Virus record (IMG/VR): IMGVR_UViG_3300017973_000001 | Span: 45,431 to 109,430 of that record | DNA: 64,000 nucleotides | DNA from: a virus | Direction: 5' to 3' (one strand) | Shown: one piece after another, positions 198 through 63,615 of the stretch | How positions within the stretch are numbered: position 1 is the first letter of the stretch | Layout of the letters: each line of letters begins with the position of its first letter | Translations under genes and position numbers: made by a program | The notes under the pieces: model-generated | What the model was told of the DNA's origin: nothing | Seen by the model: the letters and a program-made list of their open reading frames with translations, nothing else | Database searches by the model: none

Positions 198-608
198 ATG
201 ATGACTATTAAAACTGAAGAACAACAAGTTACTGAATTAATGCTTGAATCATTAATCGAGAAGTTTATCCATGTTCCAAAAAATATGCATGACAACCTTC
301 AAGAAAACGGTCAATCAGAAAAAGTAAATGTATGGTTTGCCGGCAAGGTGGCCGGTTTCGAAAAAGCAGTTATCCGTTATGACTATGAAACTGCTACTTA
401 TGTAGACGAGGCAAAAATCTATTACAACGTACTTCTAAGTGATGGTATGGCTTACGTACTAGGTGAAGAAGTTGTAATTAACTTAATCAGTGAAGATGAG
501 TTTGCTGACTTACTTGCTAGATTCCAAGCTGAAAATTCAATGACTGAGGCTGGCCAAGAGATCATTGAAGGTCAAAACAAGATTTTAATTCCCGGTGAGG
601 ATTTCTAA
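198..608 (+). CDS. hypothetical acidic protein
   Basis: ORF with SD AAGGGGG; stop overlaps next start. Confidence 0.75.
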   Translation: MMTIKTEEQQVTELMLESLIEKFIHVPKNMHDNLQENGQSEKVNVWFAGKVAGFEKAVIRYDYETATYVDEAKIYYNVLLSDGMAYVLGEEVVINLISEDEFADLLARFQAENSMTEAGQEIIEGQNKILIPGEDF

Positions 609-1309
609 TGAAAGACTTTCACACGGAACTAGAAAAACACTTGTCAGCTAAGAGTGAAATGTTCCCGGAGGTTGGGGCTAAATCAAGTCCCCTCCCTCCT
701 ATTATCGCTTTTGAAGGTATAGACGCATGTGGTAAAGAGACTCAAACAAAAATGTTATCTGAAGCGTTACATAACTCCGGATACATGGTTTGGTCTGAGA
801 CATTCCCTCGTTATCATACCCCAATCGGTAAATTAATCCGTTCCTGGTTAACTGGGAAGGTTGCAATAAATGATGAAGCTTTACACATGCTCTATGAAGC
901 TGACCGTTACGACTTTAAATTCGAGCTTGAGTTCTTTGAAGATAACCATGACGTATGTGACTTAATCATCTTAGATCGTTTCACTTTATCGAATTTAGCT
1001 TTTGCTAAGGCTAAAGGAATTGACGAGTCCTGGTTACTCAAATTGCAGTCTGCAATTCCGAAACCGGACTTAACCATCATTTTAGATATACCAGTAGAGG
1101 AGTCATTCAGCCGTAGAACTACTAGAGATAAGCATGAGAAAGACACTGAACTACTAGGTAAAGTGAGAAATGAATACAAAGAGCTAGCTAAAAACTCTAG
1201 CAAACTAGGTCAACAAATTATCATCCTAGACGGTACTAAAAGTCCTCAAGCAATACACGAAAATATCATGACGTTCATACATAAAAACTCAATAATACCA
1301 ACGCTTTGA
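608..1309 (+). CDS. tmk: thymidylate kinase
   Basis: IIAFEGIDACGKETQ P-loop, LYEADR, IILDRF and PDLTIILD motifs. Confidence 0.93.
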   Translation: MKDFHTELEKHLSAKSEMFPEVGAKSSPLPPIIAFEGIDACGKETQTKMLSEALHNSGYMVWSETFPRYHTPIGKLIRSWLTGKVAINDEALHMLYEADRYDFKFELEFFEDNHDVCDLIILDRFTLSNLAFAKAKGIDESWLLKLQSAIPKPDLTIILDIPVEESFSRRTTRDKHEKDTELLGKVRNEYKELAKNSSKLGQQIIILDGTKSPQAIHENIMTFIHKNSIIPTL

Positions 1310-1351
1310 CCCCATCTGTCTATCCTAAATGTGAAAAGGAGGTTGAAAATT

Positions 1352-1660
1352 ATGAAAGTTTTTAAAGATGACATAATCCGTGAGTATTCACAACGTCAAG
1401 GCATTAATGGTTCTGAAGCTAAAAGACGTTTCGACGACATAATCGACATTATTACTGAAAATCTTATTGCCGGTAATGACATAAAAATACCTAACTTCTT
1501 TAACTTCTTTGTAAAAGAATTGAAAGCTAAGCCAGGTATTAATCCGATCACAAAGGACCCAATCATTATCCAGGCAACTAAGACGATCCAGGTCAAAATG
1601 ACAAAGCCATTAAAGGATCAGTTAAAGGCTAACAATCTACCAAAATACTTATACGAATAA
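1352..1660 (+). CDS. HU/IHF-family DNA-binding protein
   Basis: IKIPNFFNF..KPGINPITKDPIII arm motif; SD AAGGAGG favours ATG at 1352. Confidence 0.88.
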   Translation: MKVFKDDIIREYSQRQGINGSEAKRRFDDIIDIITENLIAGNDIKIPNFFNFFVKELKAKPGINPITKDPIIIQATKTIQVKMTKPLKDQLKANNLPKYLYE

Positions 1661-1684
1661 ACTATCAAAGGAGGGCTCAACATC

Positions 1685-2476
1685 TTGTTACCACATCACA
1701 TTCAACAAAATCTACAACAAAATAAACTATACTACTCAATGGATGAAGTTGAGAACATAATCAGAGCTAAAACTGACGCTGATTATTTGGGTGATGTAGT
1801 CATTGCAAACGAAAGTTTAATATGGCATGCAGTATACAAGTATGTTGGTAGCCCTAAATACATAACCCGAAATGGTGGCCTTGAAAAAGACGACATTCTT
1901 CAGTTAGGTCGCTTAGGTTTTATAAAAGCCGTTTATGCATTTGATATTAACCGTGGTGTCAAATTTAGTAGTTTCTCAGTGACGGCCATATTTAGAGAAG
2001 TACGTTGTTTTTTACGTGATAGCTCTAGTATTATTCGTCCTACACGTACTGCTAATAGCTTAATAAATAGATTGCGTTCACTAGAATTGAAGTTAGGCTA
2101 CCTACCCCATACATCTGAATTATCAGTGTTATTGGATGAGGATGAATCTAAGATTATTAAAGCATTATTAGTAGGTCAAAATATCAAATATTTGGACGAG
2201 CCAGTAAAAAGTAAGATTGAATTTTTGGAGATACCAATATCAATGACTGATAACTTATTGTCAGACATTGATGAAGATACCATTCTTGATGAAGTGTATC
2301 TAAACAACATCACCGAAAAATTGGCTCAGAAATTGACTGACGTTGAAATGGAAGTCTTTAAAAATAGACTATCCGGGTTGAATCAGACTCAAACTGCTAA
2401 AAAGCAAAACATATCTCAAATGCGAGTTTCTAGGATCACTAGAAAAATAGCTAAGTTAATTCGAGAAGAAATGTAA
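1685..2476 (+). CDS. sigma-70 family factor, SigB/SigF/SigG type
   Basis: DDILQLGRLGFIKAVYAFD..GVKFSSF region 2; TQTAKKQNISQMRVSRI region 4. Confidence 0.9.
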   Translation: MLPHHIQQNLQQNKLYYSMDEVENIIRAKTDADYLGDVVIANESLIWHAVYKYVGSPKYITRNGGLEKDDILQLGRLGFIKAVYAFDINRGVKFSSFSVTAIFREVRCFLRDSSSIIRPTRTANSLINRLRSLELKLGYLPHTSELSVLLDEDESKIIKALLVGQNIKYLDEPVKSKIEFLEIPISMTDNLLSDIDEDTILDEVYLNNITEKLAQKLTDVEMEVFKNRLSGLNQTQTAKKQNISQMRVSRITRKIAKLIREEM

Positions 2477-2499
2477 GCTAGGAATATACCTAGCTTTTT
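2477..2499. terminator. intrinsic terminator between convergent genes
   Basis: AAGCTAGG-aatata-CCTAGCTTTTT. Confidence 0.7.
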
Positions 2500-2610
2500 C
2501 TATTCGCAATCCTCACATGTTCTTGGGTGGCCTGGGGCTTTCTCATCAATAAACACCCCACAAAATTGACATAAATATCCTTCAATGACTAATTCAGCTA
2601 CTTCGCCCAT
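2500..2610 (-). CDS. 36-aa zinc-finger microprotein (not in ORF track)
   Basis: MGEVAELVIEGYLCQFCGVFIDEKAPGHPRTCEDCE; SD AAGGGGAG; two CxxC. Confidence 0.7.
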   Translation of the reverse strand: MGEVAELVIEGYLCQFCGVFIDEKAPGHPRTCEDCE

Positions 2611-2639
2611 TATTACTCCCCTTTTCTTGTTGTATTATT

Positions 2640-4082
2640 CTAGAAGACCTCGGAAGTATCTCCGAATGACATAGCAACCCTTACAAACTCAGTCACATTG
2701 TCAAACTTAGTCCTTATAGACCTTAGTGAATTTGCTAGGAAATCTGCTATTATCCCATTCAAATCATGTGGGTATAGATTTATCCCCTTTTTAACCAATG
2801 TTTTCACAGTTGAATAAGCCTCATCTTTTGTAAAGCTTAAGTCTTTCACTAACCGATTGCAAATATCCCCCGGATATTCCTTAACTACTTCTACTGCTTC
2901 AGCATTAGGTTTATTCTCAAGCCAATTATGGAACGGTATCTTGCCAGTGTATGGAGTCTCCACTTTAGGTTCCAATTCATCTTTTGCTATTTGGTTGGTT
3001 TTTTGATTACCAATTTCATTGTCTATGAACCTAGCAAAACAACTTCCAGGAGACGAAACTGCATTTTTATATTTATACTTCTTGTAGTCAATTAAAGTTT
3101 GTTGGACTACTAAGTTAGAAATCTCAGTATGCCTGTACACCTTATATAGCTTATTAAGTGCTTGTAGTATCTGCCCTTCTGTAAACCCATTGTTAGACAT
3201 TACTTGATAAATATTTTGATAACTTAAATTAGTTTGTAACACATTTAATATTTCTTCGTCATCATGCTTTTTCTTTGGTTCTATTTCTTGATTATATTCA
3301 TATTCTGTTATAGGAGCCTTATCATGATGATTATTATATAGTGTATTACCATTATAAGTATGGAAAGTAAGTATGCTTATTAATAGGGATTCAATTCGTT
3401 GAACCTGGTCGCTTAACTCATTTGAACCCCCTATTTCTACTGAAGTGTTGGTATCACTAGGTTTTTCGGGAGGAGCTTCAGATTGAACTTCTTTTTGAAC
3501 CCCTGGAATTTTGAACCCTTCAGCTTCAGCTAGGTCCTCTATAGTTATTCCGTTTTTACGCATAAGCTCACGGATTTTATCTATTGGGCTAACTGCGTTT
3601 TTTAAGCGAGTAATTAGACTCTTTTTAGCCCCTTCAATACCGGATTTACGGTGTTTAACGTTAAGCTCCTTATGGTTGCGTACTTTAACAAGAGGTTTAT
3701 TACGTAACTCATAATCCCCTAATGGATAGTTCTGAATTATAACGACTGTTTTAGGAGTTCCAGTTGTATGTTCATTGGATTTTACAAAGTCTACTAACCC
3801 GTAGTCATACATTATGTTTAAATATTTACGCATTGTGTTAGAGGCTATACCACGGATTCTAGCCAACCCTTTAATTCCGTATGTAATTCTTCCAACGTTA
3901 CTCTCTTTAGTACGAGTAGCCATTGTATGTAGTTTACATAGTTCTAAGTAGACCTTGTCCCCTAATACGCCAATCCATTGGTCAATGCATGTATATGAAT
4001 TAAACGGTATATATAATTCATTACGTTTACGTTTTTTCTGTACATCAATATCTATAATATTTTCTGCATGCGAAAAAGACAT
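2640..4082 (-). CDS. HTH replication initiator protein
   Basis: N-terminal winged HTH (GIKGLARIRGIASNTMRKYLNIMYDYGLV), low-complexity linker with DNA iterons, KIPFHNWLE motif like Bacillus phage/plasmid Rep proteins. Confidence 0.7.
   Translation of the reverse strand: MSFSHAENIIDIDVQKKRKRNELYIPFNSYTCIDQWIGVLGDKVYLELCKLHTMATRTKESNVGRITYGIKGLARIRGIASNTMRKYLNIMYDYGLVDFVKSNEHTTGTPKTVVIIQNYPLGDYELRNKPLVKVRNHKELNVKHRKSGIEGAKKSLITRLKNAVSPIDKIRELMRKNGITIEDLAEAEGFKIPGVQKEVQSEAPPEKPSDTNTSVEIGGSNELSDQVQRIESLLISILTFHTYNGNTLYNNHHDKAPITEYEYNQEIEPKKKHDDEEILNVLQTNLSYQNIYQVMSNNGFTEGQILQALNKLYKVYRHTEISNLVVQQTLIDYKKYKYKNAVSSPGSCFARFIDNEIGNQKTNQIAKDELEPKVETPYTGKIPFHNWLENKPNAEAVEVVKEYPGDICNRLVKDLSFTKDEAYSTVKTLVKKGINLYPHDLNGIIADFLANSLRSIRTKFDNVTEFVRVAMSFGDTSEVF
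3399..3517. repeat. iterons inside rep (candidate origin)
   Basis: TTGAAC at 3399, 3422, 3483, 3495 and 3511, next to AT-rich 3230-3390. Confidence 0.55.
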
Positions 4083-4286
4083 TATTATGCGATCCTCCTA
4101 CAGAGTGGTCCCCAAAGAAAACCTCACACACACAACAACGTCTCTCTTTATCTATCTCTATATCTGTCTATTTACCCATAGATTTATTAAAATTTATATT
4201 ATATTCTATTAAAATATGTAATATTTTTTTAATAAAAAATGTACGGTAAAACCTTGCATACCCCTAATTTTATATGTATAATGGGG

Positions 4287-4370
4287 TTATCAATATTGTT
4301 TAAGCGTTTTTATACGCTTTGTTGTTGTGTGAGTGGTGAACTTTGGACGGTTGAACCACTCTTTTTTTTA
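4287..4370 (+). ncRNA. counter-transcribed antisense RNA in rep leader
   Basis: TTGCAT-17-TATAAT promoter (4254-4282); terminator GAGTGGT..ACCACTC-T8; opposite the rep leader. Confidence 0.65.
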
Positions 4371-4485
4371 TTTGATTAAGCACATAATACCATTGTCTAA
4401 AACGTTTGCATAGTCCCTATTTTAAATTTCCATAAAATATAAATATTTAGAACATTGTAAAATATACGGTAACACCATATAAATA

Positions 4486-4513
4486 AAGAGCTCCTAATGT
4501 GGGAGCTCTTTTT
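4486..4513. terminator. intrinsic terminator
   Basis: AAAGAGCTCC-taatgtg-GGAGCTCTTTTT. Confidence 0.7.
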
Positions 4514-4528
4514 GTTTGTCGAAATGTT

Positions 4529-4813
4529 TTAGTATTTTATTCCGGTATACTGTCTAAAATTTTTACCTCCGTCTTTCATGTAAGTCTTTAATTTATTCAT
4601 AAATTGTTCGTCCTGTAATGCAAGTTCGACAATAAATGCCTGGGCACTTCCTAAACTTCGATTACGTTTACAACGTTCATTAAAACGGGGGTGGCGAAAA
4701 TCAATGTTTTTACATACTTCCTCTAATGTAAAGAAATTCATACCAGTATAAGTACTAGTGACCCGTTCATATATTTCATGATTACCTTCATAAGTATGTT
4801 TCTTTTTAGCCAT
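4529..4813 (-). CDS. hypothetical protein
   Basis: ORF with SD AAGGGGG. Confidence 0.7.
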   Translation of the reverse strand: MAKKKHTYEGNHEIYERVTSTYTGMNFFTLEEVCKNIDFRHPRFNERCKRNRSLGSAQAFIVELALQDEQFMNKLKTYMKDGGKNFRQYTGIKY

Positions 4814-4888
4814 AGTAAAAAGCCCCCCTTCTCTTTGTAAGAGTATATGAGGGCTTTTCCAATTTTAGAACACAGAGCACACTAAAAG

Positions 4889-5599
4889 TTAGATTTCATC
4901 AAAGAATTTTGTAGTCCACGGTGAAGCTTCTTCAACTTCCTTACGGATCAACTCAGCTAACTCCTGGATTTCATCTTGTGCATGCGTACCTTTACGTCTC
5001 TTAGAATAAAAATCTAGTATTCCACGTAAGTTACCAGTCATTACAAAATTACATGAAGCTGACAACGGTAAAGCCATACGTGCTTTTTCTGCTGATACAC
5101 CTAACTCGCGTAATTTATCATAAGCAACCTGGGACTGATCCATTGCGTCTAGGAAAGTTTCTAATGCCTCCCCTTCTAGACCGTCCGGAACAACAAATGA
5201 CATTCCTTGAGATTTATCTTCGCTACCAAACTTTACATATCGCATACTTTGAACACTAAATGAGTACATACGGTGGCGAGTAATCTGTCCAAGAAGAACT
5301 CTCGATACCCCTTCGACTGCAAATGTGTAGTTGTCATGTTCTAATGTACTAGTATGGCCACTACGTACAATGTGACGAATTAAACGGTCAGATTCAGTTC
5401 CACCTTCCCCGTCTTTTGCTATTTCGCCAAAATATTTTCCCCCTTCAACCTCTACGATCTCAGTTGGTTTCAAGTGAGAATAACATGTACGAATTGCAGT
5501 TAGTGATAAGATTTCGCTATCTTTCACATTTCTATACTTAGCTAATTTTTTCCTAAATTTGTCGGATAATTGTGTATGTGCTAGTAACGTGATTTCCAT
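4889..5599 (-). CDS. thyX: flavin-dependent thymidylate synthase
   Basis: GHTSTLEH, RHRMYSFSVQSMRY (RHRx7S) and HAQDEI motifs. Confidence 0.96.
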   Translation of the reverse strand: MEITLLAHTQLSDKFRKKLAKYRNVKDSEILSLTAIRTCYSHLKPTEIVEVEGGKYFGEIAKDGEGGTESDRLIRHIVRSGHTSTLEHDNYTFAVEGVSRVLLGQITRHRMYSFSVQSMRYVKFGSEDKSQGMSFVVPDGLEGEALETFLDAMDQSQVAYDKLRELGVSAEKARMALPLSASCNFVMTGNLRGILDFYSKRRKGTHAQDEIQELAELIRKEVEEASPWTTKFFDEI

Positions 5600-5678
5600 A
5601 ATTCAGCAATTTCCCCTTTTCGTTCGACTATGTAGGTTAGACCTCACATAGTTCTTATACGAAAAAGAGAGACGTTAA

Positions 5679-6230: not shown

Positions 6231-6267
6231 TTTTTATTCTATTAATATAGTAACCTATAAGTATACA

Positions 6268-6303: not shown

Positions 6304-6314
6304 CTATTTTAATA

Positions 6315-6715: not shown

Positions 6716-7774
6716 TTATGATTTTTTACGTGATTTTCCGTAAGTTTCTCTTGCAGAACGGTTAGCTAATTTATGGTACCCACGAACACATGAGAATCTA
6801 CCTTCATTAACGATTTCAGCTCTAGGGAAGTTTGCTTTTAATATTGGAGTTATGTACTTACGTAGTACGTCACAACCTCCCCCAGTAAGAATAATAGTGT
6901 CGATTTCACTCTTAATATGGATTAACTTTTTGTCGAGTTCACCTACTAAACTTTGAGCATGAATTTGATAATTCTCCTCAACAATTTTTCTAATATCAGT
7001 ATCATTTGAGATAAATCCGGATTGAACGTATTGTGGGATACGTGCAATATTTATGCTTTTACCATAATTAATTTCAATGTCGCTTTGAATACCGAGCCAC
7101 GCTTCATACATACCTTCGTTAAGCGTTGTATTAATTTCCGGGATTGGTGTAAATCCTCTTGAAGCAGTTAAATTCCATGTACGAGCGCCTAAATCAAATA
7201 CTATAGTAATTTTTGATAATTCTACACTGTCGGTAACAGAGCCATCATCTTGCAGTAGATAATTAGCAGTAGTACCAAAAGCCTGGTCCGTTATGAATGT
7301 CTTTTTAATATTTATAGCTTTTTGAATAATTGTCCCGTCAGCTAAAGTTACTTTCATTTCATGTGGTTTCTCAGTAAGTTTTTTTAATAATGCTATACGT
7401 TCCGGTACATATTGTTTAACTGGTAAGCCCATTACTAGTACATCTATGTCATCTTGATCCGGACCATTTTCTGTTAATAGCGTTAGCATTGTTTTAAACA
7501 GTGGGTCAAAATCATTTGCAAAATTATGTTTATTTTCTACGCCTTGCCACTTAGCTTTAGGGTTAAGATTTTGTGCTCCATACCCTACTAGCTTTCTAAT
7601 ATCATCACCGTATTCTACAGTTATATGGCTATGAGGCTCACTATAATCTCCGTCAATACCATTGTCTGGTTTTGGTACGAATTTGTGTACAAAATTAGGT
7701 AAAAATATCTCTAAATCGCCCTTTTTTCCTTTGAAATCTCCAAAGCCATCATCAATCCCAAGCACATTATACAT
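6716..7774 (-). CDS. parM: ParM/StbA actin-like segregation ATPase
   Basis: GIDDGFGDFK, LVMGLP, VFDLGARTWN and IILTGGG actin-fold motifs. Confidence 0.9.
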   Translation of the reverse strand: MYNVLGIDDGFGDFKGKKGDLEIFLPNFVHKFVPKPDNGIDGDYSEPHSHITVEYGDDIRKLVGYGAQNLNPKAKWQGVENKHNFANDFDPLFKTMLTLLTENGPDQDDIDVLVMGLPVKQYVPERIALLKKLTEKPHEMKVTLADGTIIQKAINIKKTFITDQAFGTTANYLLQDDGSVTDSVELSKITIVFDLGARTWNLTASRGFTPIPEINTTLNEGMYEAWLGIQSDIEINYGKSINIARIPQYVQSGFISNDTDIRKIVEENYQIHAQSLVGELDKKLIHIKSEIDTIILTGGGCDVLRKYITPILKANFPRAEIVNEGRFSCVRGYHKLANRSARETYGKSRKKS

Positions 7775-10080: not shown

Positions 10081-10081
10081 T

Positions 10082-33925: not shown

Positions 33926-34029
33926 AATACCTCCGGTTATAGTTTAGTTCCTTATGAATACGGGTTGAGTTGTAGACTGATATAATAGCCAACCCAAAGA
34001 ACCCCCAGGAGGTGGGGGCGGGCTGACCT

Positions 34030-44078: not shown

Positions 44079-44628
44079 AGTAGGAACAGTTAGATTATAT
44101 ATGGGCTCAATGTTCAGTGGTAAAACTACTACACTTATTGAAATCTTACGTTTCCGTAGAAACCAGGCTATTTGTTTTAAACCTAGTATAGATAATAGAA
44201 GTGGTTCAGCTACAACATCTTCACATAACGGCTTTGAATATCCTTCTATGATTATTAATCAAGCTAGTGAGATATTCCTTCATGACTTGAATAATATTAC
44301 GCTTATTGGAATTGATGAAGCTAGCTTATTCCTAAACGATCCTACGCTAATTCCAACTGTCCGAGTACTAAGGGATATGGGTTTTGATGTAGTAATTAGT
44401 GGATTGGAGCTTACTTCTGAAGATGAGCCATTTGGACAGATGGGCGACTTAGCTTGTATATCTGATGAAGTCTATAAATTACGTACTTATTGCTCTATGT
44501 GTAAAGATAGACCGGCCTCTATTTCAATGTTTACTGGTTCTGAGAAAGGGTTAGTAAAGATTGGTGGGGAGAGTTTATATAAACCAGTTTGTCGTACTTG
44601 TTATAACGGGGTAAAAGATAATGAGTGA
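44071..44628 (+). CDS. tdk: thymidine kinase
   Basis: GSMFSGKTT, FKPSIDNR, IGIDEA, IGGESLYKPVCRTC. Confidence 0.93.
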   Translation: MNEVGTVRLYMGSMFSGKTTTLIEILRFRRNQAICFKPSIDNRSGSATTSSHNGFEYPSMIINQASEIFLHDLNNITLIGIDEASLFLNDPTLIPTVRVLRDMGFDVVISGLELTSEDEPFGQMGDLACISDEVYKLRTYCSMCKDRPASISMFTGSEKGLVKIGGESLYKPVCRTCYNGVKDNE

Positions 44629-46315
44629 TTTTCTAGATGGTTTATTAGGTGAATTTATTGATATTGCTGAAAGTACTTCAGAAGTAGAAGGGTTATGGAG
44701 AGAAACGCCCGTAGATATTATTACGTTTTTTAAAGACTATATGGGTGAGTCTCCGTATCCAGGCAAGCAAACAGAACTTCTACAAAATGTAAATGACATT
44801 ATGTGGTACAAGCTAACTGGTGACGAGAAGTTTTGCCAGGAGGACTTACAACAAATAACTGAAATGGTTATCTTATTTGGTAAAGGTTCCGGTAAAGACT
44901 TCTTAGCTAGTGGAATACTAACCTATGTTATCTATCTAGTACTTTGCTTAAATGATCCACACACCTACTTTGGGTTTGGTAAGGATGAAAATATTGACTT
45001 TATCAATGTGGCCATCAACGCCTATCAAGCTAATAACGTATATTTTAAAAAGCTTAAGGCACGTTTAAATAACTGTAAGTGGTTCGTGAAAGTTACGAAA
45101 GAGCCGAGAGCATGGAACGAATACCAGGTATTAAAAAACCAGGTTCGATTCTTCAAAGGGGTTACGGCCCATTCTGCCCATTCCGAGGCTGATAGTTTTG
45201 AAGGATTTAACCCGTTAGTTCTGATATACGACGAAATAGGAGGCTTCGAGTTCGAGAAAGCAGAGTTTTGTTATGCTACTCTACGTTCTTCAGCTTCATC
45301 CCGTTTCAATGAAAAGCAGTTACATATTTTCATAAGTTTCCCTAGAAGTGAGTCTGATTTCATGTACTCAAAGTACAAGGAGGCTATTCACTCAAAGGAC
45401 CCGGAGGTTTATGCCATTACGGGGTATTCATGGGAAGTTAACCCTAAGATTAGCCGTAAGTCATTGGAAAAAGATTTCATTCGTGATCCGGAAGGAAGTC
45501 GCATGCGTTACCAATGTATTCCTCCTAAGTATTCTGAAGGTTTATTCCAGTTTCCGGAGAAGATTGATACCGTTGTTCAGCGTGGAAAACATGCCCAATG
45601 CCAAACGTTAACAGTTCAGAATACCATTACAACCCGTGTGCTTAAAAACGGTGAGGAGCGTCATTTTACGGGCCTAGAGATACACGGATTACAACTAGAC
45701 CCTAACTATACTTACTATCTAGGAGGAGACGGTGGGGTTGAGACTGATAGTTACGTATTAGCGCTATTCCACGGGGAGCCAACTAAGATAGAAGTACTAG
45801 AAGAAGGGGAAGTTATAGAAAAGTATGCTAATAAACCAGTAGAGGACCTTATTTTAGAGTGGAAACCTAATAAGGCTGACCGTATCCCGGTAGACCTCAT
45901 GAATGTAGCTGAAGTTATCGAAATGATCTGCAAGCAAGTATACGTGAAAAAGGCTCTTTTCGATAAATTTAACTCGGCTGAAGTTGTTCAAAGGTTGATG
46001 GGTATGGGGGTTGAGGCTGAGGACAAGAACTGGTCGAACCCATTCCAGTTACAAATCTATCAAAATATTAAAGGTCATATCTACACTGGTAATATCGAAC
46101 TCTTAGACCATATCAATCTAGAAGGTATGAACGCTAATGAGGAGCTTAAAAACATAAAGTTATTGAATGGTAACAAAATAGATCACGATAAAGATAAATC
46201 AAAAGACTATAGTGACGCAAGAGCCGGAGCAGTTTGGTTATGTGCAACTGACGAACCGGACGATTCAGAACACTTTGCTATGCCAACTTTACTAGGAGCT
46301 AGGAGGAGAGCTTAA
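44621..46315 (+). CDS. terL: terminase large subunit
   Basis: GKGSGKD Walker A, LIYDE Walker B, LGGDGG, FDKFNS, KIDH..SKDYSDA nuclease motifs. Confidence 0.9.
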   Translation: MSDFLDGLLGEFIDIAESTSEVEGLWRETPVDIITFFKDYMGESPYPGKQTELLQNVNDIMWYKLTGDEKFCQEDLQQITEMVILFGKGSGKDFLASGILTYVIYLVLCLNDPHTYFGFGKDENIDFINVAINAYQANNVYFKKLKARLNNCKWFVKVTKEPRAWNEYQVLKNQVRFFKGVTAHSAHSEADSFEGFNPLVLIYDEIGGFEFEKAEFCYATLRSSASSRFNEKQLHIFISFPRSESDFMYSKYKEAIHSKDPEVYAITGYSWEVNPKISRKSLEKDFIRDPEGSRMRYQCIPPKYSEGLFQFPEKIDTVVQRGKHAQCQTLTVQNTITTRVLKNGEERHFTGLEIHGLQLDPNYTYYLGGDGGVETDSYVLALFHGEPTKIEVLEEGEVIEKYANKPVEDLILEWKPNKADRIPVDLMNVAEVIEMICKQVYVKKALFDKFNSAEVVQRLMGMGVEAEDKNWSNPFQLQIYQNIKGHIYTGNIELLDHINLEGMNANEELKNIKLLNGNKIDHDKDKSKDYSDARAGAVWLCATDEPDDSEHFAMPTLLGARRRA

Positions 46316-47377: not shown

Positions 47378-48922
47378 ATGGCGATATATGACCGTTTTCT
47401 AAAACTATTACCAAAACGTAATAATACTTTTAAACCTAATAGTCCGGAGATACCTAGACACTTAAACGTTTTTGCTAAAAGTTCCGGTGGTGGAGGACTA
47501 GGTGGTAATCCTTTGAGTGACTTACCACCTACACCGGAATTTGGTGGATCACGTACATCTATTCCTAAATTCTCGCAAGGGGGAGGAAACTTTGGTAACT
47601 TACCTCGTCGTGTAAAGTCGGACTTAGGGTTAGATGAACGTACATTAAATGGTCTTAACATAGAAGATTTAATGGACAAGTTAATGGACGCTCACCCGGA
47701 CATTAGCTTTGCAATTTGGAATTTTCTTCGTATAGCAAATTCCGGATATGACATAAATGTTACTAAACTTGGGACTGGTAAAGCATTTGCTCCTGGTAAG
47801 AAAGATATAGATTTAATTGTTCAAAGATTAGAGTTGCCTAACGTAGCTAACTTTGAGAGTAGTAGAAGTATAGATAAAGTAGTTAACCAGGTAATTCAAG
47901 CAGTTGTAACAAGGGGTGCCGGGGCAGTCGAGTTAGTTTTAACTCCCACACATGATGACATAGCATTTATCGCCCCAGTTGACCCGGCTACTATTACATT
48001 TAAGTTTGAAAATTTCAGATACGTCCCTTATCAGCTTAACGGTAAATTATCACTTGATATACCTACATTCTTCTATGAGGGATTAGATGAACGTATCGAT
48101 AATCCATATGGTCGTTCTCCACTTTTTGGGGCTATCAATATGGTAATGTTCCAGTTACAACTCTTAAACGATATAAAACAAGTAATTCATAATCAAGGTT
48201 ATCCACGTCTTGATATTACAATACTTGAAGAAGTATTACTTAAGCGCATGCCTTTAACTGTGCGTAACAATGAAGCGAAAAAAGCCCAGTGGTTAAATGA
48301 TAAGCTGAAGGAAATTATTGACGCTTATAACAACCTGGAACCGGATGACACATTTGTACATTTTGATTCTATTGCAATGAGTATGGTAGGTGGGAAATCC
48401 GGTGGTGGTGGGGCTTTAATGGACCCGGAGAAATTATTTAGTGTAATTGATAATTTAATTATGGCCGGGTTAAAGACTGTAAGCACCATCTTAGGTAGAC
48501 GTTCTAGTGGTAACACTGAGAGCTTCGCTAAGTTAGAAACAAAGTTATACATAATGGGTGTAAAGGCCATTCAGCAAGTAGTTGAAACTGTAATGTCAAG
48601 AGCGTTAACAATGGCACTTAATATACGTGGTAAACAAGGTGTAGTTGAGTTTAAATTTAAACCGATTGAAATTAGGACCGAATTGGAGCAAGCCCAATTT
48701 GCCCAAATCCATCTACAGAATATTGCTTACATGAGGGATCAAGGATGGATTGACCAAATCGAAGCTTCAAACTTAGCAGTTAGTCATGATCCAGTAAGCG
48801 ATCCAAATTTAGCTATGTTAGGTAAGGGTGGAAGTACAATAACAAATAAAGATGGAGCACCAACTACTGGTCCAACGGATACAGTTGGCCCTAATGGAAC
48901 TCCCCAACAAACAGGCAACTAA
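47378..48922 (+). CDS. portal protein
   Basis: position after TerL, 514 aa, PYGRSPL motif. Confidence 0.8.
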   Translation: MAIYDRFLKLLPKRNNTFKPNSPEIPRHLNVFAKSSGGGGLGGNPLSDLPPTPEFGGSRTSIPKFSQGGGNFGNLPRRVKSDLGLDERTLNGLNIEDLMDKLMDAHPDISFAIWNFLRIANSGYDINVTKLGTGKAFAPGKKDIDLIVQRLELPNVANFESSRSIDKVVNQVIQAVVTRGAGAVELVLTPTHDDIAFIAPVDPATITFKFENFRYVPYQLNGKLSLDIPTFFYEGLDERIDNPYGRSPLFGAINMVMFQLQLLNDIKQVIHNQGYPRLDITILEEVLLKRMPLTVRNNEAKKAQWLNDKLKEIIDAYNNLEPDDTFVHFDSIAMSMVGGKSGGGGALMDPEKLFSVIDNLIMAGLKTVSTILGRRSSGNTESFAKLETKLYIMGVKAIQQVVETVMSRALTMALNIRGKQGVVEFKFKPIEIRTELEQAQFAQIHLQNIAYMRDQGWIDQIEASNLAVSHDPVSDPNLAMLGKGGSTITNKDGAPTTGPTDTVGPNGTPQQTGN

Positions 48923-50889: not shown

Positions 50890-51846
50890 ATGCCAACGGT
50901 TCAACAAGTCCATTTAGACAAGATGCTCTCTAACATTTCGATTGGTTATTCTAACGAAATGTATATCGCAGATCAAATTTTTAAAGATGTAACTGTACAA
51001 AAACAATCAGATAAATACTACGTTTTTGGTAAAGAACGTTTCCGTGCTAATGATGACTTAAGAGCACCTGGTACTGAAGCAAATGAGATTTCATGGCGCT
51101 TCAGCTCGGACCAATATTTCTGTCAAGGTCATGCTTTACGTCACGGAATTGCTGATGAAGAAGTTCAGAACGCAGATGACGCTCTTAACCTAGAAACTGA
51201 AGGTACTGAATTAGTAACTGAGGGTATTTTATTAAACAAGGAAATTGACGCTTCAAACCAAGTCCTTGACCCTAAAAACTACCATTCTGAGTTACAACTA
51301 ACTTTAGGTACTGCTGGTACATATAAATGGTCAGACTACGATCATTCTGATCCAGTTCTAGACATTCAAAGAGCAAAAGAAGCTATCCATAAAAAATCCG
51401 GTGTACGTGCTAATACGTTAATTATCTCTGAGCCAGTTTTAAACATTTTAAAACTTCATCCAAAATTAAAAGAGATTATTAAATACGTTCAACGTGGTAT
51501 CGTTACTGAAGAAATTATGGCAGTGGCTTTCGGAGTAGATAACATTTTAGTAGGTTCTGCTTTAAAATCATCTGCTAATAATCCAGGTCAAGGGGACATT
51601 CTAAACTACATTTGGGGTAACTCAGCAGTTTTAGCTTATATCCCGGCTAACCCTGGTAGAAAACAAGTTGCTTTAGGTTACAACTTTGCATGGAATAAAG
51701 ATGGACAAGGTGCCGTTCAAGTACGTAAATGGTACGAGATTGGTAGACGTGCGACTCTTATTGAGGCTGAAAACTGGTACTCTCAAAAAATCGTATCAAA
51801 TGTTGCCGGCTTCTTATTCCAAGACGCAATCGTACCATTATCATAA
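50890..51846 (+). CDS. major capsid protein
   Basis: LSNISIGYSN..IADQIF, WSD..SDPVLDI; position; strong SD. Confidence 0.85.
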   Translation: MPTVQQVHLDKMLSNISIGYSNEMYIADQIFKDVTVQKQSDKYYVFGKERFRANDDLRAPGTEANEISWRFSSDQYFCQGHALRHGIADEEVQNADDALNLETEGTELVTEGILLNKEIDASNQVLDPKNYHSELQLTLGTAGTYKWSDYDHSDPVLDIQRAKEAIHKKSGVRANTLIISEPVLNILKLHPKLKEIIKYVQRGIVTEEIMAVAFGVDNILVGSALKSSANNPGQGDILNYIWGNSAVLAYIPANPGRKQVALGYNFAWNKDGQGAVQVRKWYEIGRRATLIEAENWYSQKIVSNVAGFLFQDAIVPLS

Positions 51847-56199: not shown

Positions 56200-59100
56200 A
56201 TGCCAAGTCAAGACAAGCACGAATTGGTAACGGAGATAAAAGCCGAATATGGAGATACGATTGCCAAAGCATTAGAGTACGCCAATGCCATTGGTACACT
56301 AGCTACCAACTTCGGTAAGGCTCAAGAACATATGACAGGTCTATCCGGATTCACTAAGGATTTAAACCTGGATTTCAAAAAACAACTTGAAGAAGTTTTC
56401 AAATTGATCGGTGTTGGTGGTGGAGCTACCGTTAAACTCACCAAAACTAAGTTAAAAGAAAACATTAAAGAAAAGTTTGAGGACGCTATCAGTAACTTTG
56501 ATCCGGAAATTGTCCTTGCAAATGACGGTGATAATAAAGTTACACTTTCAGTAAGTGATACGCTAAAACAAAAACTACAAATAGAGTATGAAAAAGCACT
56601 AACAAAATTTGTAGATGTAACGGAAATAGACCCAAATGGTATGGTGCCAATTAAACTTCCGTTAAGTGCCATGACTAATATGCAAGAACGGTTTAAAAAA
56701 GTTTTTATGGACGATATAGAGAAAATAAACTTTGTATGGGACCGTAAACGTGTTGAGAAAGGCATGAAGATAGACCAAATGCCTTTAGCTTCTTTTGAGC
56801 TGAATGGAGAACATCTTCAATCTTTATTTAATAAGGTACGTGACCGTTTTATTGAAGAACTCAAAAAGCCGGATATGATTAACTTACAAAACGTAAAGAA
56901 AATGGAAATACCGGTTGGGGAGTTAAATAAAGCAGTAGACCTTATTAGAGAAAGCATTGGTAATTTAGATGAGTCTTTAAAAGTAGACGCAACTAAACTT
57001 ATGGAGCTACCTAAAGTCCAAACACGTATTACAGATTTAAAGACTAATTTGCAATTAATTGTTGGTACTATTTACCAAATTACCGAGAGTGCTAAAGATA
57101 TAGGTCTAACTGAAGAAGATAAGAAAAAACTTGAGCAAGTACAGACGAAAATAAAAGGACTATCTCAAGGTATATTAACAAAAGTTGTTAATGATATAGG
57201 TGAAATGACAAAGGGCTTAAAAGGAAAAGCAGAATTTTCACAAGCTGACTTAGCTCAAGTAATGCAACCTATAAACAAGATTAAAGAAATTGTCCGTGAG
57301 TTTGTTGAGGTAGAAATAGTAAAAGCTGAAGAAATCTTACGTCAACAATCAATCGCTCCTCCAAAAATTAGAAAAAACTCAAAAGAAGCAACTGAGAATT
57401 TTACAACTTTCTCTAAAATTCAAAATGATATTATCAATGCTTCTAAAAAAGCGTTAGAGAACTTAGATACTCATGGTGTAGTTTTTAATACTGCCCCAGT
57501 TATCGAAGGGATCAATGCGTGGGCAGAAAAAGTAGTATTAGATTTAAAAGCTAATGTTGATACAGAGTTAGCAAGTGTCGGATTAAATTTAGCACGAAGT
57601 CAAAGAACAGTCATTGAAGGATTTTATGAATCACTTCTAAAAGTGTCTAAATTAAAATTAGGACCTAAAAAAGTTCAAGAAGGTCTCGAAGTAAAAATTT
57701 CATCTGAAGAAATTTTTGCTGAAATTACTGAACAGATAAAAGGTCTAGTAACTGAATACTTAGGTAATATCAAACCTACAGACTCAGCTAAAGCAAAACT
57801 AGATAAAGGTCTAGAAATCACACAACCTATGGTAGTCAAAATGGAAACTGCCCTAAAAGGTACACTTAATAAAATGGTTGATGATGTTGTTTTAAAGTTA
57901 AATGCACATGAGCCGAGTACTTTAGGGTCAGAGGAAATATCAGCATTAGATCGTGTTCTTTCTGATGAGTCCAGGGCTATTGTAAGTCGTATTGTTGCTG
58001 AAGCTAGGTCTATTTCCAATAGTTTATCTGAAAGTTTTTATACAGGTAATTCTAAAGGAATTAGTAAAGAAGAACATACACAAATGGCTCAATCGTTAAA
58101 AGAAACTGCTAATAAAGTCGTCTCAGAGTATGGAAATATGTTTGAGGGAGCTTTAGGGGCGTTTGTAATCACTGCTTCAACAGTTGAAGATATTCATAAC
58201 AAAATATCTAGTGAATTAAATGTATTTGCTAAGAAAACGAATATTGAGTTAAGTGATTACGATACTCCATTTATGATTAAAGGTATCGTTAGAAAACTTC
58301 AAGTAGAAGTTCAAAAAGCAATTAGGCAAAATGTTGAAGCTTGGAGACCTTCCCTTGAAGCTTTTAACCCTAACATGGATTTTGAAGCATTAGTTTCTTC
58401 ATTACGTGATCCTATGCAAAATATGGTTCGTCAAATGAGCTTAGATTTTGAACACGAATTGAGAAAACTATATGACACTTCAAAAATTGAGTTTACGGAT
58501 GAGCATACACCTATCCAGGCGAAAGGTGTTGTTAAAAAAGCTCAACAAAAACTTCAATCTGCTATAAAGGGGAATGTTGAAGCTTGGGACCCAACGGAGG
58601 GGCTTGAACCGTTCGAACCTAAAATTAATTACAAAAAAGTAGGTAATGCAGTCGAACAGTTAGTAAATAACATGCTTAATCATGCAGTATCTAATGTTAA
58701 AGATAGAGCAACTGCAATAAAAACTTCTTCAATCCATACAGAGAATGATACGAATAACAACGAAATAAACAACGCTAAAGCAGAAAGTGAAGGATATTTT
58801 AATCCAAAAACAGAGTTACATTTAATCAATGAATCAGTGTTGAGATACGTAAGTAATTATGTTCATTATGTTTCTAGATTAATACGTGAATTTACTGCTG
58901 AAGTTGATAATTTTTCTGTCAGTAAAAAATCATTAAATGCTGACGTTCGTAAATCAATAGCTCAAAAGTTAGATATGTCAGTGAAAGATTGGATGAAAGA
59001 CGGTAATGAAATGAGTGGGGATGAAGATTTTAAAAATATTCTCCACGAAAGCGTTAATAGTATCTATAGAAAATTCCATGATGTTGTACAAAGTCATACT

Positions 59101-62100
59101 TCTGACATTATTAAAGAATACAAAACTGAATTAAAAAACGTAAAACTAGAGCCGGATACTTCTGTAGTTTACTTCCTTGCAGACCAACTTCATGATATGC
59201 AGTCAGCTATTACTAAAAAAATTCGTGATGTACTTAGAGCTCAATTTAATGCCATGAAAGATGAGCTTAAAGCAATGAGAATTGGTACACAATCTATGGG
59301 TTATGAAGTACCTAAAGGTGTTGTTAATGAGCTAGAAAGAACACAAAAAGCTCAAGTAGTACAACAAATAGTGGTCGCAAACCAGGTACCTAGAGACGGT
59401 GGTGGATATGTAGGTAGATACACTGCTTATAACAATGGTTACAGTAAACAAAATTTTGGTAATGAAGGTTCATATGGTAATGGTACTGATTACTATAACG
59501 AAACTAAAAGTGCTGAATCGTTTAAAAAATCCATTGTTAACACAATGCGCTATATCATGGCCGGCTCACTTATGGGTGTACCTAGTATGCTTTTATATCA
59601 AGCGTTTGACTCTGCTAAGACATATGATTACGAAATGGAAAAAGCTCGTCAGAACTTCATGATTGACGGTGGTAAGGCGACATTGGCCGGTAATGGGTTC
59701 AGTAGTAAAGATGTTAATAGGAGCGTTCAAGACATTGGTATTATGAATGGTGTTTCAATGGATGACTCAGCTAAAGCTTTCCAAATAGCGTCACGGACGA
59801 CTGATAACTCAGCACAAGCTTTACAAGTAACTAGAGAGATCACAAAAATGAAGTCTCTTGAGGACATTGACATAATAAAAGCGTCTGAAGGTCTTGAGTC
59901 TGTACTAAAGCAGTGGGGTCAAAAAGCCGGAGCTTCAAAAGATATGACTAACATGATGATTATTGGTTCAAATATTTCCAATGCAAGTATCGAAGATATT
60001 CTTGACGCTCAAAGTCGTTCGGGTGCCCTTTTCAATCAAAATCTTAAAGGTATGGGTACTGCTGAAAAATTTGCTACTTCTGTAGCTTTAACATCTATCT
60101 TTAAACAAGCAACTGGGCGCTCCGGTACGGAGGCCGGGACTTTCTTTAAAGCCATGCTTCAACGTCCATATACAAAACAAGGCCGACAGGAGCTTGAAAC
60201 AATGTCAGAAGATAAGCGATTTAAAGACTTAAATCCTTACTACACTGATAAAGACGGTGTAAAACGTCAGAAGAATTTCTTAGACCTTTTCGGAAGTATC
60301 TTAGATGTTTCTGACAAATTGAACGACTCTGATCGTGCTAATATGTGGTCTAAATTAGTACCTGGATGGCACTCCGGTTCTATGGGTGCGATTGACTCAT
60401 TTACTCAAGGATTAAAGCAAGATGTAGAAGAAATGAAAAAGAACGCTGAGAAAAAAGGTGGGAAATCTGTTGATACAGATAAGGATGGAAAAGTCTCATC
60501 TAAAGAAGCCTTAGAATTTGTAGTAAAGAAAATATATGACAAAAATGATCCAAACGCATTGAAGAATAATGCAGATACAGTAACTAATATGCAGATGGGA
60601 ATGGCCAATACATGGGCGTACCAGGGTCGTAAAATGAAATCAGAGTTTGAAGTTTCATTGGTTGACGTATTTGGGAATTTAAAAGATGAGTTCAGTTCAT
60701 TGAGTGTATATATTAGTACACTCTTACGTTATGTAAGAGACAATGCTAGTACATTTGCTGAAATGGTTAAAAAGTTCGTTCAAGTTGGGGCGTATGCACT
60801 TGGTAAACAAGGTGTTAAACTTCTTAAAAATCAACTACAACAACGAAAAGAAGAAAAATTAAATAACATGTTTGGGGAAAATGTACGTTATCTAAATGAG
60901 GAAGGACGTTACCATAACTTAAGAAGATTGGCTTTATCAGAAGAAATGGGGTCCCATAGAGATAGCTACAATAATGCATTAGAAAAACATAATTCAGCTA
61001 ATTCAAGACTAGCCGAAATTGACAATGAGTTGAACGGTATTGGCAAACAAAGAGAAGAACATCAAGAAGCTCATGACCATGCTGATAAAAGACTTAAGGA
61101 GTCTAAGCCAGGTGAAGATACACAAGACCTTACAAACACATTAGTTCGTTCCGGAAGGGCACTTGAAGGTTTGGATGAAGAAGAAAAAAAATTAATAGCT
61201 GAACAAAAGAAATTAACTGCTGAAGCAAGTAAATATTCAAGAGAAATGACCCATGCTCAAAAAAATATGCAAGGTCTTGAAGATGAGATGATCTCCACTA
61301 ATAACTCTATGGCAAAAGTTAATGGCCGTTATAAAGCATTGACTATGGCTATGGAAGATATGGGCCTAGACGCAACTAAGTTAAAAGTTAAATTTAACGA
61401 ACTTCAAAGTGGTATGTCCGAAACTAGTGCCGGTTCAAATTCATTAGAGAGAAATCTTACTGAAATTGGCGAACGTGCCGGACTTAGTGAAGGTCAAATT
61501 TCTGAATTACGTAGTCAAGTAGAAAAGCTTAACCAGGAATTTAAAGATGGTGACATTACTGCTGAAGAATATATTAAGTCGTTAAATAAACTGGAAAGAC
61601 AACATCAATTAGGTTCTATGGGATTTGACGGTGTTGGAGGAAACTTTAACAGGCAGAACGGTAGAGGTCTTGTCGATACTGCTATTGAGGGTTCTATGTT
61701 TGAAAGTAGTATGAACGGTGCTGAAGATATGCCGAAATCCCTCGGTAATAGAATAGGGGCTATGTTAACCACTGCCGGTACGCTAATATTCGGGCGTAAG
61801 CTAATGGGTGCAACTGGTGGATGGCTTGGTAAACTTAAAGGTTTATTTGCTGAAGGAGGCAAACTAGGTAGTATCGGTAAAATTTTTTCAATGGGTGGTA
61901 AATTCGGTCAAGTCTTGAAACTAGGTAAACTTGGAAAGGCAATACCGTATGTTGGAGAAGCTTTATTGGGTATGGACGCTGGCGACGCTATGTTTGACGC
62001 TATGTTTGCTCAAGGAATGAATAAATATGAAAAAACTAAAGAACAAGGTTCTAGACGTGAAACAGTAGCAAATGACATAAAAAGCGCAAGCGAGGGTGGT

Positions 62101-63615
62101 TTTTTTCAAAAGTTTCTTTTTAGTTTTGATACTTTGTTTAAAATGCCTATGTCCGGATTAAATCACATGTTCGGTGGTAACATGACTTCATTCTCAGAGT
62201 ACGGGAAAGCATTAAAAGACTATGCTCTATATTCCGGGGATGAATTAGACAAGCACTTAAAGAAAGATTTAGGTTATGAGGAGAAAAAAAGAGAAGCTTT
62301 TAAACAAGAAGAAGAAGAACGACTGAAAAAGTTAGATATGTTCGACCAAAACCATGACGGAATTGTAGATCGCCCACAAGATCGTACAACTCCAATTTCA
62401 TTTGAAGATGTTCAAACATACTTAGAAGGACTGCAAGATAGATTATCAATGTCTCAAAGTCGTAATGATACGGCTTTTACTGTCGGTACTACTAAACTAT
62501 TAATCAATGGTAATAGCCAAAACTCAGCTTCAATGAGAATGGCAAAAGAAGGCTATATAAGTACAACTATGGCTGATATGAACCAGGCTTTAAAAGATGT
62601 AACTGACCGTATGAACACTTTAGAAGGTGGGACAGACACTCAATCATACATTACTATGGAGAAATATGCACAAGAGCTTAAAAACAATTTAGCTAATTTA
62701 AAACTTCAACAATACCAAAATAAAATGTCTGTCGTAGATGATATTAATGAGAAGATGGGCATTGGGTTGAACTACAATCAATCTCGTAGTGGTATCCAAC
62801 GTTCAAATTTATTAATGAATGGGTACCGTGAGGACTCAACTGAGTTACGAAAAACAATGAAAGAGTTCTTCACGAAAAACATTGAAGTATTAAATATCGC
62901 TATTAATAAAATTGGAGCTCAGATGAGTACTGTACCAGTTGGGTCAGATAAGTGGTACGAACTTCGTAACGATAAAGCTAGTCTTGAATCACAAAAAGCT
63001 GAGCAAAAACTACAACTATTCCAAAATGATTTTTCTGAAGTAGACAATATCATGAACAACATGCAAGATAAATTAACGCTTCAGAATGGTAAGTTTGAAA
63101 TACAAAAGGATAACGCTATTCTTGGTGGGGCACAAAAAGACTCGTCAGTACTAAAAGGTATTGAAAATAATAGGGTTTATTCTACTAATTCAATTATGCA
63201 AGGTGCTGAAAGTCAATTACGTGCATTACTTACTAAGTATGACGGTAAACAAGCTCAGCGAAACCAAATTCTACTAGCGATCCAACAACTTCAAGTAGAG
63301 CAGAAAAATCAGTTAGTAGGGATCAAAGATACTTTAGACTACAATAAATCAACATTCAATTTACCGAGTGGTGTACAACCAATGGGTTACTTTGATTATG
63401 TTATGTCGAGAGGGACAAATAAAAACGTCTCAGTATCTCAAGGTGACGTAAAAATTAATGTAACTATCGGTAATATGAGTGGGGCACAAAATGATGTAGA
63501 TAAGGTCACTAAGTCAATAACTGACGCAGTTAAGAAAGCACAAAAAGATTTAGTTAATGCCTTTACTACCAACGTAACAAGTGGTATGGGTACTAACTAT
63601 CCTAATATGGGGTGA
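56200..63615 (+). CDS. tape measure protein
   Basis: 2471 aa, helical; TMP core (ATGRSGTEAGTFFKAM); Gly-rich hydrophobic segments. Confidence 0.9.
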   Translation: MPSQDKHELVTEIKAEYGDTIAKALEYANAIGTLATNFGKAQEHMTGLSGFTKDLNLDFKKQLEEVFKLIGVGGGATVKLTKTKLKENIKEKFEDAISNFDPEIVLANDGDNKVTLSVSDTLKQKLQIEYEKALTKFVDVTEIDPNGMVPIKLPLSAMTNMQERFKKVFMDDIEKINFVWDRKRVEKGMKIDQMPLASFELNGEHLQSLFNKVRDRFIEELKKPDMINLQNVKKMEIPVGELNKAVDLIRESIGNLDESLKVDATKLMELPKVQTRITDLKTNLQLIVGTIYQITESAKDIGLTEEDKKKLEQVQTKIKGLSQGILTKVVNDIGEMTKGLKGKAEFSQADLAQVMQPINKIKEIVREFVEVEIVKAEEILRQQSIAPPKIRKNSKEATENFTTFSKIQNDIINASKKALENLDTHGVVFNTAPVIEGINAWAEKVVLDLKANVDTELASVGLNLARSQRTVIEGFYESLLKVSKLKLGPKKVQEGLEVKISSEEIFAEITEQIKGLVTEYLGNIKPTDSAKAKLDKGLEITQPMVVKMETALKGTLNKMVDDVVLKLNAHEPSTLGSEEISALDRVLSDESRAIVSRIVAEARSISNSLSESFYTGNSKGISKEEHTQMAQSLKETANKVVSEYGNMFEGALGAFVITASTVEDIHNKISSELNVFAKKTNIELSDYDTPFMIKGIVRKLQVEVQKAIRQNVEAWRPSLEAFNPNMDFEALVSSLRDPMQNMVRQMSLDFEHELRKLYDTSKIEFTDEHTPIQAKGVVKKAQQKLQSAIKGNVEAWDPTEGLEPFEPKINYKKVGNAVEQLVNNMLNHAVSNVKDRATAIKTSSIHTENDTNNNEINNAKAESEGYFNPKTELHLINESVLRYVSNYVHYVSRLIREFTAEVDNFSVSKKSLNADVRKSIAQKLDMSVKDWMKDGNEMSGDEDFKNILHESVNSIYRKFHDVVQSHTSDIIKEYKTELKNVKLEPDTSVVYFLADQLHDMQSAITKKIRDVLRAQFNAMKDELKAMRIGTQSMGYEVPKGVVNELERTQKAQVVQQIVVANQVPRDGGGYVGRYTAYNNGYSKQNFGNEGSYGNGTDYYNETKSAESFKKSIVNTMRYIMAGSLMGVPSMLLYQAFDSAKTYDYEMEKARQNFMIDGGKATLAGNGFSSKDVNRSVQDIGIMNGVSMDDSAKAFQIASRTTDNSAQALQVTREITKMKSLEDIDIIKASEGLESVLKQWGQKAGASKDMTNMMIIGSNISNASIEDILDAQSRSGALFNQNLKGMGTAEKFATSVALTSIFKQATGRSGTEAGTFFKAMLQRPYTKQGRQELETMSEDKRFKDLNPYYTDKDGVKRQKNFLDLFGSILDVSDKLNDSDRANMWSKLVPGWHSGSMGAIDSFTQGLKQDVEEMKKNAEKKGGKSVDTDKDGKVSSKEALEFVVKKIYDKNDPNALKNNADTVTNMQMGMANTWAYQGRKMKSEFEVSLVDVFGNLKDEFSSLSVYISTLLRYVRDNASTFAEMVKKFVQVGAYALGKQGVKLLKNQLQQRKEEKLNNMFGENVRYLNEEGRYHNLRRLALSEEMGSHRDSYNNALEKHNSANSRLAEIDNELNGIGKQREEHQEAHDHADKRLKESKPGEDTQDLTNTLVRSGRALEGLDEEEKKLIAEQKKLTAEASKYSREMTHAQKNMQGLEDEMISTNNSMAKVNGRYKALTMAMEDMGLDATKLKVKFNELQSGMSETSAGSNSLERNLTEIGERAGLSEGQISELRSQVEKLNQEFKDGDITAEEYIKSLNKLERQHQLGSMGFDGVGGNFNRQNGRGLVDTAIEGSMFESSMNGAEDMPKSLGNRIGAMLTTAGTLIFGRKLMGATGGWLGKLKGLFAEGGKLGSIGKIFSMGGKFGQVLKLGKLGKAIPYVGEALLGMDAGDAMFDAMFAQGMNKYEKTKEQGSRRETVANDIKSASEGGFFQKFLFSFDTLFKMPMSGLNHMFGGNMTSFSEYGKALKDYALYSGDELDKHLKKDLGYEEKKREAFKQEEEERLKKLDMFDQNHDGIVDRPQDRTTPISFEDVQTYLEGLQDRLSMSQSRNDTAFTVGTTKLLINGNSQNSASMRMAKEGYISTTMADMNQALKDVTDRMNTLEGGTDTQSYITMEKYAQELKNNLANLKLQQYQNKMSVVDDINEKMGIGLNYNQSRSGIQRSNLLMNGYREDSTELRKTMKEFFTKNIEVLNIAINKIGAQMSTVPVGSDKWYELRNDKASLESQKAEQKLQLFQNDFSEVDNIMNNMQDKLTLQNGKFEIQKDNAILGGAQKDSSVLKGIENNRVYSTNSIMQGAESQLRALLTKYDGKQAQRNQILLAIQQLQVEQKNQLVGIKDTLDYNKSTFNLPSGVQPMGYFDYVMSRGTNKNVSVSQGDVKINVTIGNMSGAQNDVDKVTKSITDAVKKAQKDLVNAFTTNVTSGMGTNYPNMG

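Follow-up and report, generated by a model that had tools for sequence, protein, structure and literature searches.

The avoidance of restriction sites by phages has long been established, and earlier work on it was reportedly done by Sharp in 1986 and Karlin in 1992. The closest described cases concern Type II systems of Listeria, in which LmoJ2 recognizes GCWGC and LmoJ3 recognizes GCNGC (PMC10059834), and the sites of both are under-represented in A511 and P100, two lytic phages of Listeria (PMC10059834 and its ref. 32). A 2018 survey by Rusinov et al. reported that GCNGC is mostly not avoided (22.5% of pairs below 1) and is often over-abundant, and it makes no mention of amino acids or codons (PMC6286503). 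A search of a limited literature set for dipeptide loss through restriction avoidance found no example. Here we describe the loss of GCNGC, and with it of the dipeptide Ala-Ala, in an uncultured phage. The window, a stretch of 64,000 nucleotides in whose numbering coordinates are given unless stated otherwise, comprises bases 45431-109430 of the 109,430-bp phage record IMGVR_UViG_3300017973_000001 (called G000; 35.4% GC).

GCNGC does not occur on either strand of the window, for which Markov models of orders 0, 1, 2 and 3 predict 64, 47, 41 and 30 sites, and it is equally absent from the whole genome, where 72.6 sites are expected under the order 1 model used for this genome-wide figure. Among all 256 words of the form XXNXX it is the most depleted one. 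Because GCNGC is missing from both strands, no reading frame can give Ala-Ala in the standard code. The gene set, 161 crude open reading frame (ORF) genes with 32,974 residues and an Ala content of 4.58%, contains no Ala-Ala at all (69 expected), and the spaced arrangement Ala-x-Ala (AxA) is found 82 times (69 expected). An earlier note on this DNA, made from its letters and ORF translations, had claimed exactly this lack of Ala-Ala with AxA being common, and had argued that Ala-Ala, being always GCNGCN, cannot be recoded away from GCNGC. Both statements hold, and the recount against Markov expectation that it proposed places GCNGC and Ala-Ala at zero, far under expectation. One long structural protein illustrates the effect:

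56200..63615, + strand: tape measure protein of 2,471 amino acids (phrog_32382, tail length tape measure)

It contains 162 Ala residues and no Ala-Ala (10.6 expected), and the tape measure protein of the related element G001, introduced below, has 9 Ala-Ala.

The loss is visible at the level of DNA. Synonymous shuffles within genes, which keep both the proteins and the codon usage, give 20.5 +/- 4.5 GCNGC sites with a minimum of 9 in 100 shuffles, against the 0 observed; the same test predicts 102 CCGC and 78 GCATC sites, of which 1 and 2 are present. The non-coding DNA of G000 is likewise devoid of GCNGC (~4 expected). These data support a GCNGC loss that is DNA-level, word-specific and of the restriction-avoidance kind, and that reaches into protein sequence.

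GCNGC is no special case, but one of about 27 words. When a word is called purged at an observed/expected ratio <0.1 with at least 15 sites expected, 27 minimal words are purged in G000, among them the following (observed/expected):

CCGC/GCGG, 2/162 (whole genome)
CGCG, 1/51
GCWGC, 0/49
GCATC, 2/86
CATCG, 2/78
CCAGA, 6/149
CCTGA, 7/148
CCTGC, 3/71
ACAGC, 6/110
CTCTTC, 0/45
GAATGC, 0/30
GAATTC, 0/34
AGATCT, 0/34
TGATCA, 0/28
GATATC, 0/26
RGATCY, 3/90
CCWWGG, 2/66
CACGAG, 0/17
CYCGRG, 0/28

Furthermore, 22 of the 64 palindromic hexamers are missing from G000, where about 1 would be expected to be. Many other words stand at or above expectation, such as GGATG (110/126), ACTGG (240/161), CCWGG (175/102) and CCNGG (246/151), and the purge is therefore word-specific rather than a general bias. 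The 55 residual sites of purged words are scattered evenly over G000; clustering, which would be a sign of recently acquired DNA, was looked for and not found. Two of the survivors stand alone for their word:

34018..34021, + strand: sole CCGC/GCGG site left in the window, intergenic, within a long non-coding stretch
5107..5110, + strand: sole CGCG site left in the whole genome

GCGG at 34018-34021 might owe its survival to a constraint on RNA structure. Some words are in excess: CCGG is 2.5-fold over-represented (284/116), to which forced spellings such as CCG-GCN for Pro-Ala may contribute, and the surplus of TCAGC (297/103) and CTGAAG (147/45) may compensate for purged neighbouring words.

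Many of the purged words resemble Type II or IIS specificities, namely those of AciI, BstUI, TseI/BbvI, SfaNI, EarI, BsmI, EcoRI, BglII, BclI, EcoRV, StyI, BssSI, AvaI and BstYI. Searches of the complete genome for the methyltransferase families PF00145, PF01555, PF02384 and PF02086 gave no match, other methyltransferase folds not having been searched. The link to SPbeta-type C5 methyltransferases that the earlier note had drawn thus found no counterpart here, as PF00145 is without a match in the complete genome. The word loss of G000 has the hallmarks of passive restriction-site avoidance: depletion lies below the expectation from composition, it acts on DNA, the set of words is lineage-specific and, as regards self-protection, the four methyltransferase families searched gave 0 matches.

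Two of the purged words account for the loss of Ala-Ala. CCGC is depleted in each flanking context, with ACCGC at 1/53, TCCGC at 0/50 and CCCGC at 1/35. Because GCCGC contains CCGC and GCGGC contains GCGG, the disappearance of these two versions of GCNGC is already explained, and GCWGC is the only extra loss beyond the CCGC/GCGG purge. Under the combined avoidance of GCWGC and CCGC, 0 of the 16 codon pairs for Ala-Ala remain, and Ala-Ala is the only dipeptide that is unencodable in G000.

The relatives of G000, which is a Jenst-like siphovirus from peat, display what may be an intermediate state. Named by portal identity, they are:

Paenibacillus sp. S-38 plasmid, 62% identity
Solibacillus contig, 64%, and Peribacillus contig, 66%
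G001, the 103-kb record IMGVR_UViG_2894708747_000001 (loci L004-L009), 65%; its portal is attributed to Moorella sp. E308F
Brevibacillus phage Jenst, 45% identity
Bacillus pumilus and B. tequilensis elements, ~45%

The closest portal matches are 69-70% identical and lie on 110-125-kb contigs. A megablast search with the structural module of G000 against the phage collection detected no close relative at the DNA level, and a first scan of genome contigs with the portal alone as query gave no match. The sample of relatives consists of 79 IMG/VR loci, with survey counts limited to the 66 loci of at least 8 kb, and the counts for Jenst cover its first 50 kb.

GCWGC is strongly avoided in G001 (3/82) and Jenst (1/67), GCSGC is abundant in both (168/51 and 84/40, respectively), and CCGC stands at 571/266 in G001. 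Ala-Ala occurs near expectation in G001 (98 vs 112) and in Jenst (48 vs 66.5). All of these pairs, 98/98 in G001 and 48/48 in Jenst, begin with GCC or GCG, even though ~65% of the Ala codons in both are GCT or GCA. GCWGC avoidance is found in 10 of the 66 related loci, all 10 retain Ala-Ala, and the first codons of their Ala-Ala pairs show a GCW:GCS ratio of 4:252. CCGC avoidance, Ala-Ala loss and GCSGC avoidance were sought in the same 66 loci, and each was found in none of them. Along the portal tree, GCWGC avoidance switches state at least 5 times, at least 3 of them on well-supported branches. Thus, Jenst, G001 and eight further loci, members of the same phage group with portals 45-65% identical, have GCWGC avoidance in common with G000, but they retain CCGC, so that Ala-Ala persists as GCC/GCG-GCN; this is a one-word state.

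The remaining word sets diverge. G000 avoids 27 words and G001 19, of which only ~4 are common to both, and each lacks ~20 of the 64 palindromic hexamers, mostly different ones; many six-base palindromes are likewise missing from G001 and from the first 50 kb of Jenst. The losses common to G000 and G001 are GCWGC, GAATGC, GAATTC, GATATC and CYCGRG. G001 avoids CCGG (3/159), GGWCC (0/104) and AAGCTT (2/49), which G000 keeps or over-uses. As a separate observation, a related 21-kb Bacillus tequilensis prophage-like locus (L012) is depleted of CGCG (1/25) and GCATC (0/27), two words that G000 avoids as well, with GCWGC and CCGC not being avoided.

These patterns suggest a route in two steps. Avoidance of GCWGC, as it would be selected by a TseI/ApeKI/LmoJ2-type enzyme or, for GCAGC, by a BbvI-type enzyme, is recurrent in this phage group and is met by a silent change, with Ala-Ala spelled GCC-GCN or GCG-GCN and the protein unharmed. 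Avoidance of CCGC/GCGG (AciI-type), which within the sample is confined to G000, forbids exactly the spellings GCC-GC and GCG-GC. Once none of the four GCN-GC spellings is allowed, every Ala-Ala would have to give way to an amino-acid change, in most cases to Ala-Ser, Ser-Ala or Ala/Lys combinations, and every other constrained dipeptide would be handled by forced codon choice. We regard it as quite probable that G000 evades restriction passively, by avoiding sites, and that two avoided words jointly make Ala-Ala unencodable. The word counts, the codon patterns, the state of the relatives and the substitutions at conserved sites are direct observations; host restriction endonucleases as the selecting agents, their specificities and which of the two steps came first are inferred.

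The forced codon choice can be seen directly in G000. As CCA-GC, CCT-GC and CCC-GC would each create an avoided word, Pro-Ala is restricted to CCG-GCN, and 29 of 30 Pro-Ala pairs are spelled in this way. Of 97 Thr-Ala pairs, 2 have ACA as their Thr codon, although ACA accounts for 33% of the Thr codons. Pro-Ala, Ala-Gly and Asp-Ala occur somewhat less often than expected (0.60-0.65), to which we attach no claim.

The amino-acid changes were followed by comparing G000 with G001 over 48 reciprocal best pairs (43% identity). At 60 aligned Ala-Ala sites of G001, G000 has no Ala-Ala; 30 sites keep one Ala, and the commonest outcomes are Ala-Ser, Ser-Ala and Lys-Ala (AS, SA, KA). From the retention of single Ala residues (0.36), ~8 of the 60 sites would be expected to stay Ala-Ala and 0 did, which at 43% identity is modest support. 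Across all columns aligned to G001, Ala is down by 21% in G000, but Trp, Arg, Cys and Gln are similarly reduced, so that the decrease does not appear to be Ala-specific; the lower GC content of G000 may explain part of the Ala drop. Two conserved structural proteins provide sites at which the substitution is visible against many homologues:

47378..48922, + strand: portal protein (phrog_3753, E 3e-97), 0 Ala-Ala
48764..48769, + strand: portal residues 463-464, Ala-Ser (GCT TCA), Ala-Ala in 59/78 homologues
50890..51846, + strand: major head protein (phrog_1005, E 2e-87), 0 Ala-Ala
51250..51255, + strand: major head residues 121-122, Ala-Ser (GCT TCA), Ala-Ala in 28/35 homologues

Portal homologues alone are uninformative for Ala-Ala because only ~2 are expected per protein. 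The alignment with orthologues that the earlier note had suggested, in search of Ala-Ala changed to Ala-Ser or Ser-Ala, thus came out as anticipated, with these two being commonest and the conserved sites holding Ala-Ser.

Selection against the Ala-Ala peptide itself, through a protease or a folding constraint and with the GCNGC loss as a by-product, is ruled out because GCNGC is also missing out of frame (~20 expected) and in non-coding DNA (~4 expected); in addition, orthologous proteins of relatives retain Ala-Ala and AxA is normal in G000, so that we give this explanation practically no probability. Mutational decay, in which the words were 5-methylcytosine (m5C) targets of a host methyltransferase or of one since lost from the phage and then underwent deamination, could draw on the fact that several purged words are known m5C methylation targets. 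Such decay would produce depletion rather than 0 vs 73 expected, however, and A/T-rich six-base words that would not be open to it are gone as well (GAATTC 0/34, GATATC 0/26, TGATCA 0/28). The four methyltransferase families searched gave no domain and the lost words vary between relatives, which together make decay highly improbable. As the genome was assembled from the metagenome of a single peat sample, an assembly artefact or a chimeric contig might be suspected. Yet IMG/VR classes the record as one with direct terminal repeats, its completeness estimate is 100%, independent Logan contigs of the run contain all sampled 31-mers of the 7.4 kb tested, and assembly error cannot remove specific words evenly along 109 kb, with residual sites being unclustered. 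An artefact can be considered as good as excluded.

The most serious alternative is that the selection came directly from a Fnu4HI/LmoJ3-type nuclease, which reads GCNGC and acted on all four words, with the CCGC purge being separate and coincidental. Such systems do exist in low-GC Firmicutes, lytic Listeria phages have fewer of their sites than expected (PMC10059834), and all four GCNGC words are at zero in G000. On the other hand, the context-independent CCGC purge already removes GCCGC and GCGGC and leaves nothing for such a nuclease to explain, the relatives show avoidance of GCWGC alone in 10 cases and of GCSGC in none, and one assumption more is required than in the two-word model; we therefore consider this alternative unlikely. 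A TseI/BbvI-like word together with an AciI-like word explains everything, and a true GCNGC enzyme, though possible, is not required. Hence, of the inference made in the earlier note, the DNA-level purge strong enough to reach proteins stands, whereas the GCNGC-reading nuclease does not follow, since the CCGC purge and GCWGC suffice.

Several points weigh against avoidance of two restriction words as the cause. The nucleases are putative, and we know of no enzyme that matches the purged words CCAGA, CCTGA, ACAGC and CATCG. Within G000, GCWGC plus CCGC is indistinguishable from GCNGC plus CCGC, as each GCSGC word holds CCGC or GCGG. With the nearest available relative, G000 shares only ~65% portal identity, which makes any order and timing of the steps tentative. 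Finally, the depletion of dipeptides and their share of allowed codon pairs are uncorrelated (Spearman rho 0.02, p 0.66); because this general correlation is absent, the protein-level effect is shown for Ala-Ala only.

G000 derives from one peat sample whose metagenome was sequenced in 2018. Its host is probably a spore-forming member of the Bacillota, as judged from the nearest named relatives by portal identity. The gene names given in the earlier note agree with profile searches, which assigned terminase, portal, capsid and tape measure through PHROGs, and helicase and peptidase through Pfam. The Pfam assignments comprise a SNF2 helicase, a papain-like peptidase and an amidase-LysM lysin. 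The terminase and two genes of possible relevance to lifestyle are located as follows:

44621..46315, + strand: terminase large subunit (phrog_2, PHROGs), 0 Ala-Ala
6716-7774, - strand: actin-like protein of 352 amino acids (Pfam ALP_N and MreB-like_C)
G000:25976-26464: tyrosine recombinase

The actin-like protein and the tyrosine recombinase, taken with the Paenibacillus plasmid relative, suggest a plasmid-prophage lifestyle with actin-based segregation, as far as gene content can tell; ParA and ParB domains were searched for in G000 and not found. The related 103-kb element G001 has a GC content of 37.5%, and Moorella genomes have a much higher one. Either G001 differs strongly in composition from its nominal Moorella host, or this host assignment is doubtful.

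In a wider context, it appears likely that host restriction repertoires act jointly on phage proteins: each word alone is recodable and hence protein-neutral, but the overlap of GCWGC and CCGC makes Ala-Ala unencodable and imposes substitutions that extend to conserved residues of capsid and portal. DNA-level defence can then dictate protein sequence, beyond silent codon choice. The intermediate one-word state of the relatives, in which Ala-Ala is rescued by GCC/GCG, would make the two-step route particularly easy to follow. Taken together, the avoided words may serve as a fingerprint of the host restriction repertoire, and they predict activity on CCGC, CGCG, GCWGC, GCATC, RGATCY, CCWWGG and others. 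Should the principle hold generally, the peptides that a phage cannot encode could be derived from its genome, for any phage, and would reveal which host defences act in combination; they would also allow a test of whether escape from restriction carries a measurable cost at the protein level.

Comparison with known systems places G000 at the end of a range. In Staphylococcus phage K and other members of Kayvirus, GATC and GGNCC are reportedly lost, and the loss of GGNCC would forbid Gly-Pro; these phages would resemble G000 as large phages of Firmicutes from which short sites have almost wholly disappeared, but differ in words and host. A511 and P100 resemble G000 in being phages of low-GC Firmicutes that avoid the same words, presumably because of host Type II restriction. 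In A511 (50 kb, positions 50001-100000, locus L092), GCNGC occurs 24 times vs 52 expected and Ala-Ala 22 times vs 61 expected, so that the published GCNGC/GCWGC depletion seems to carry a partial protein-level effect. In the same 50 kb, GATC is absent (0 vs 102 expected). The A511 depletion is partial and CCGC is kept (78/65), whereas the purge in G000 is total and arises from two words jointly. With the site avoidance surveyed in prokaryotic viruses (PMC6286503), G000 shares the word- and lineage-specific loss of mostly palindromic short sites and the apparent lack of self-methylation, but it differs in having ~27 words purged and a dipeptide lost. Thus, G000 represents a known anti-restriction strategy taken to an extreme and not a new mechanism.

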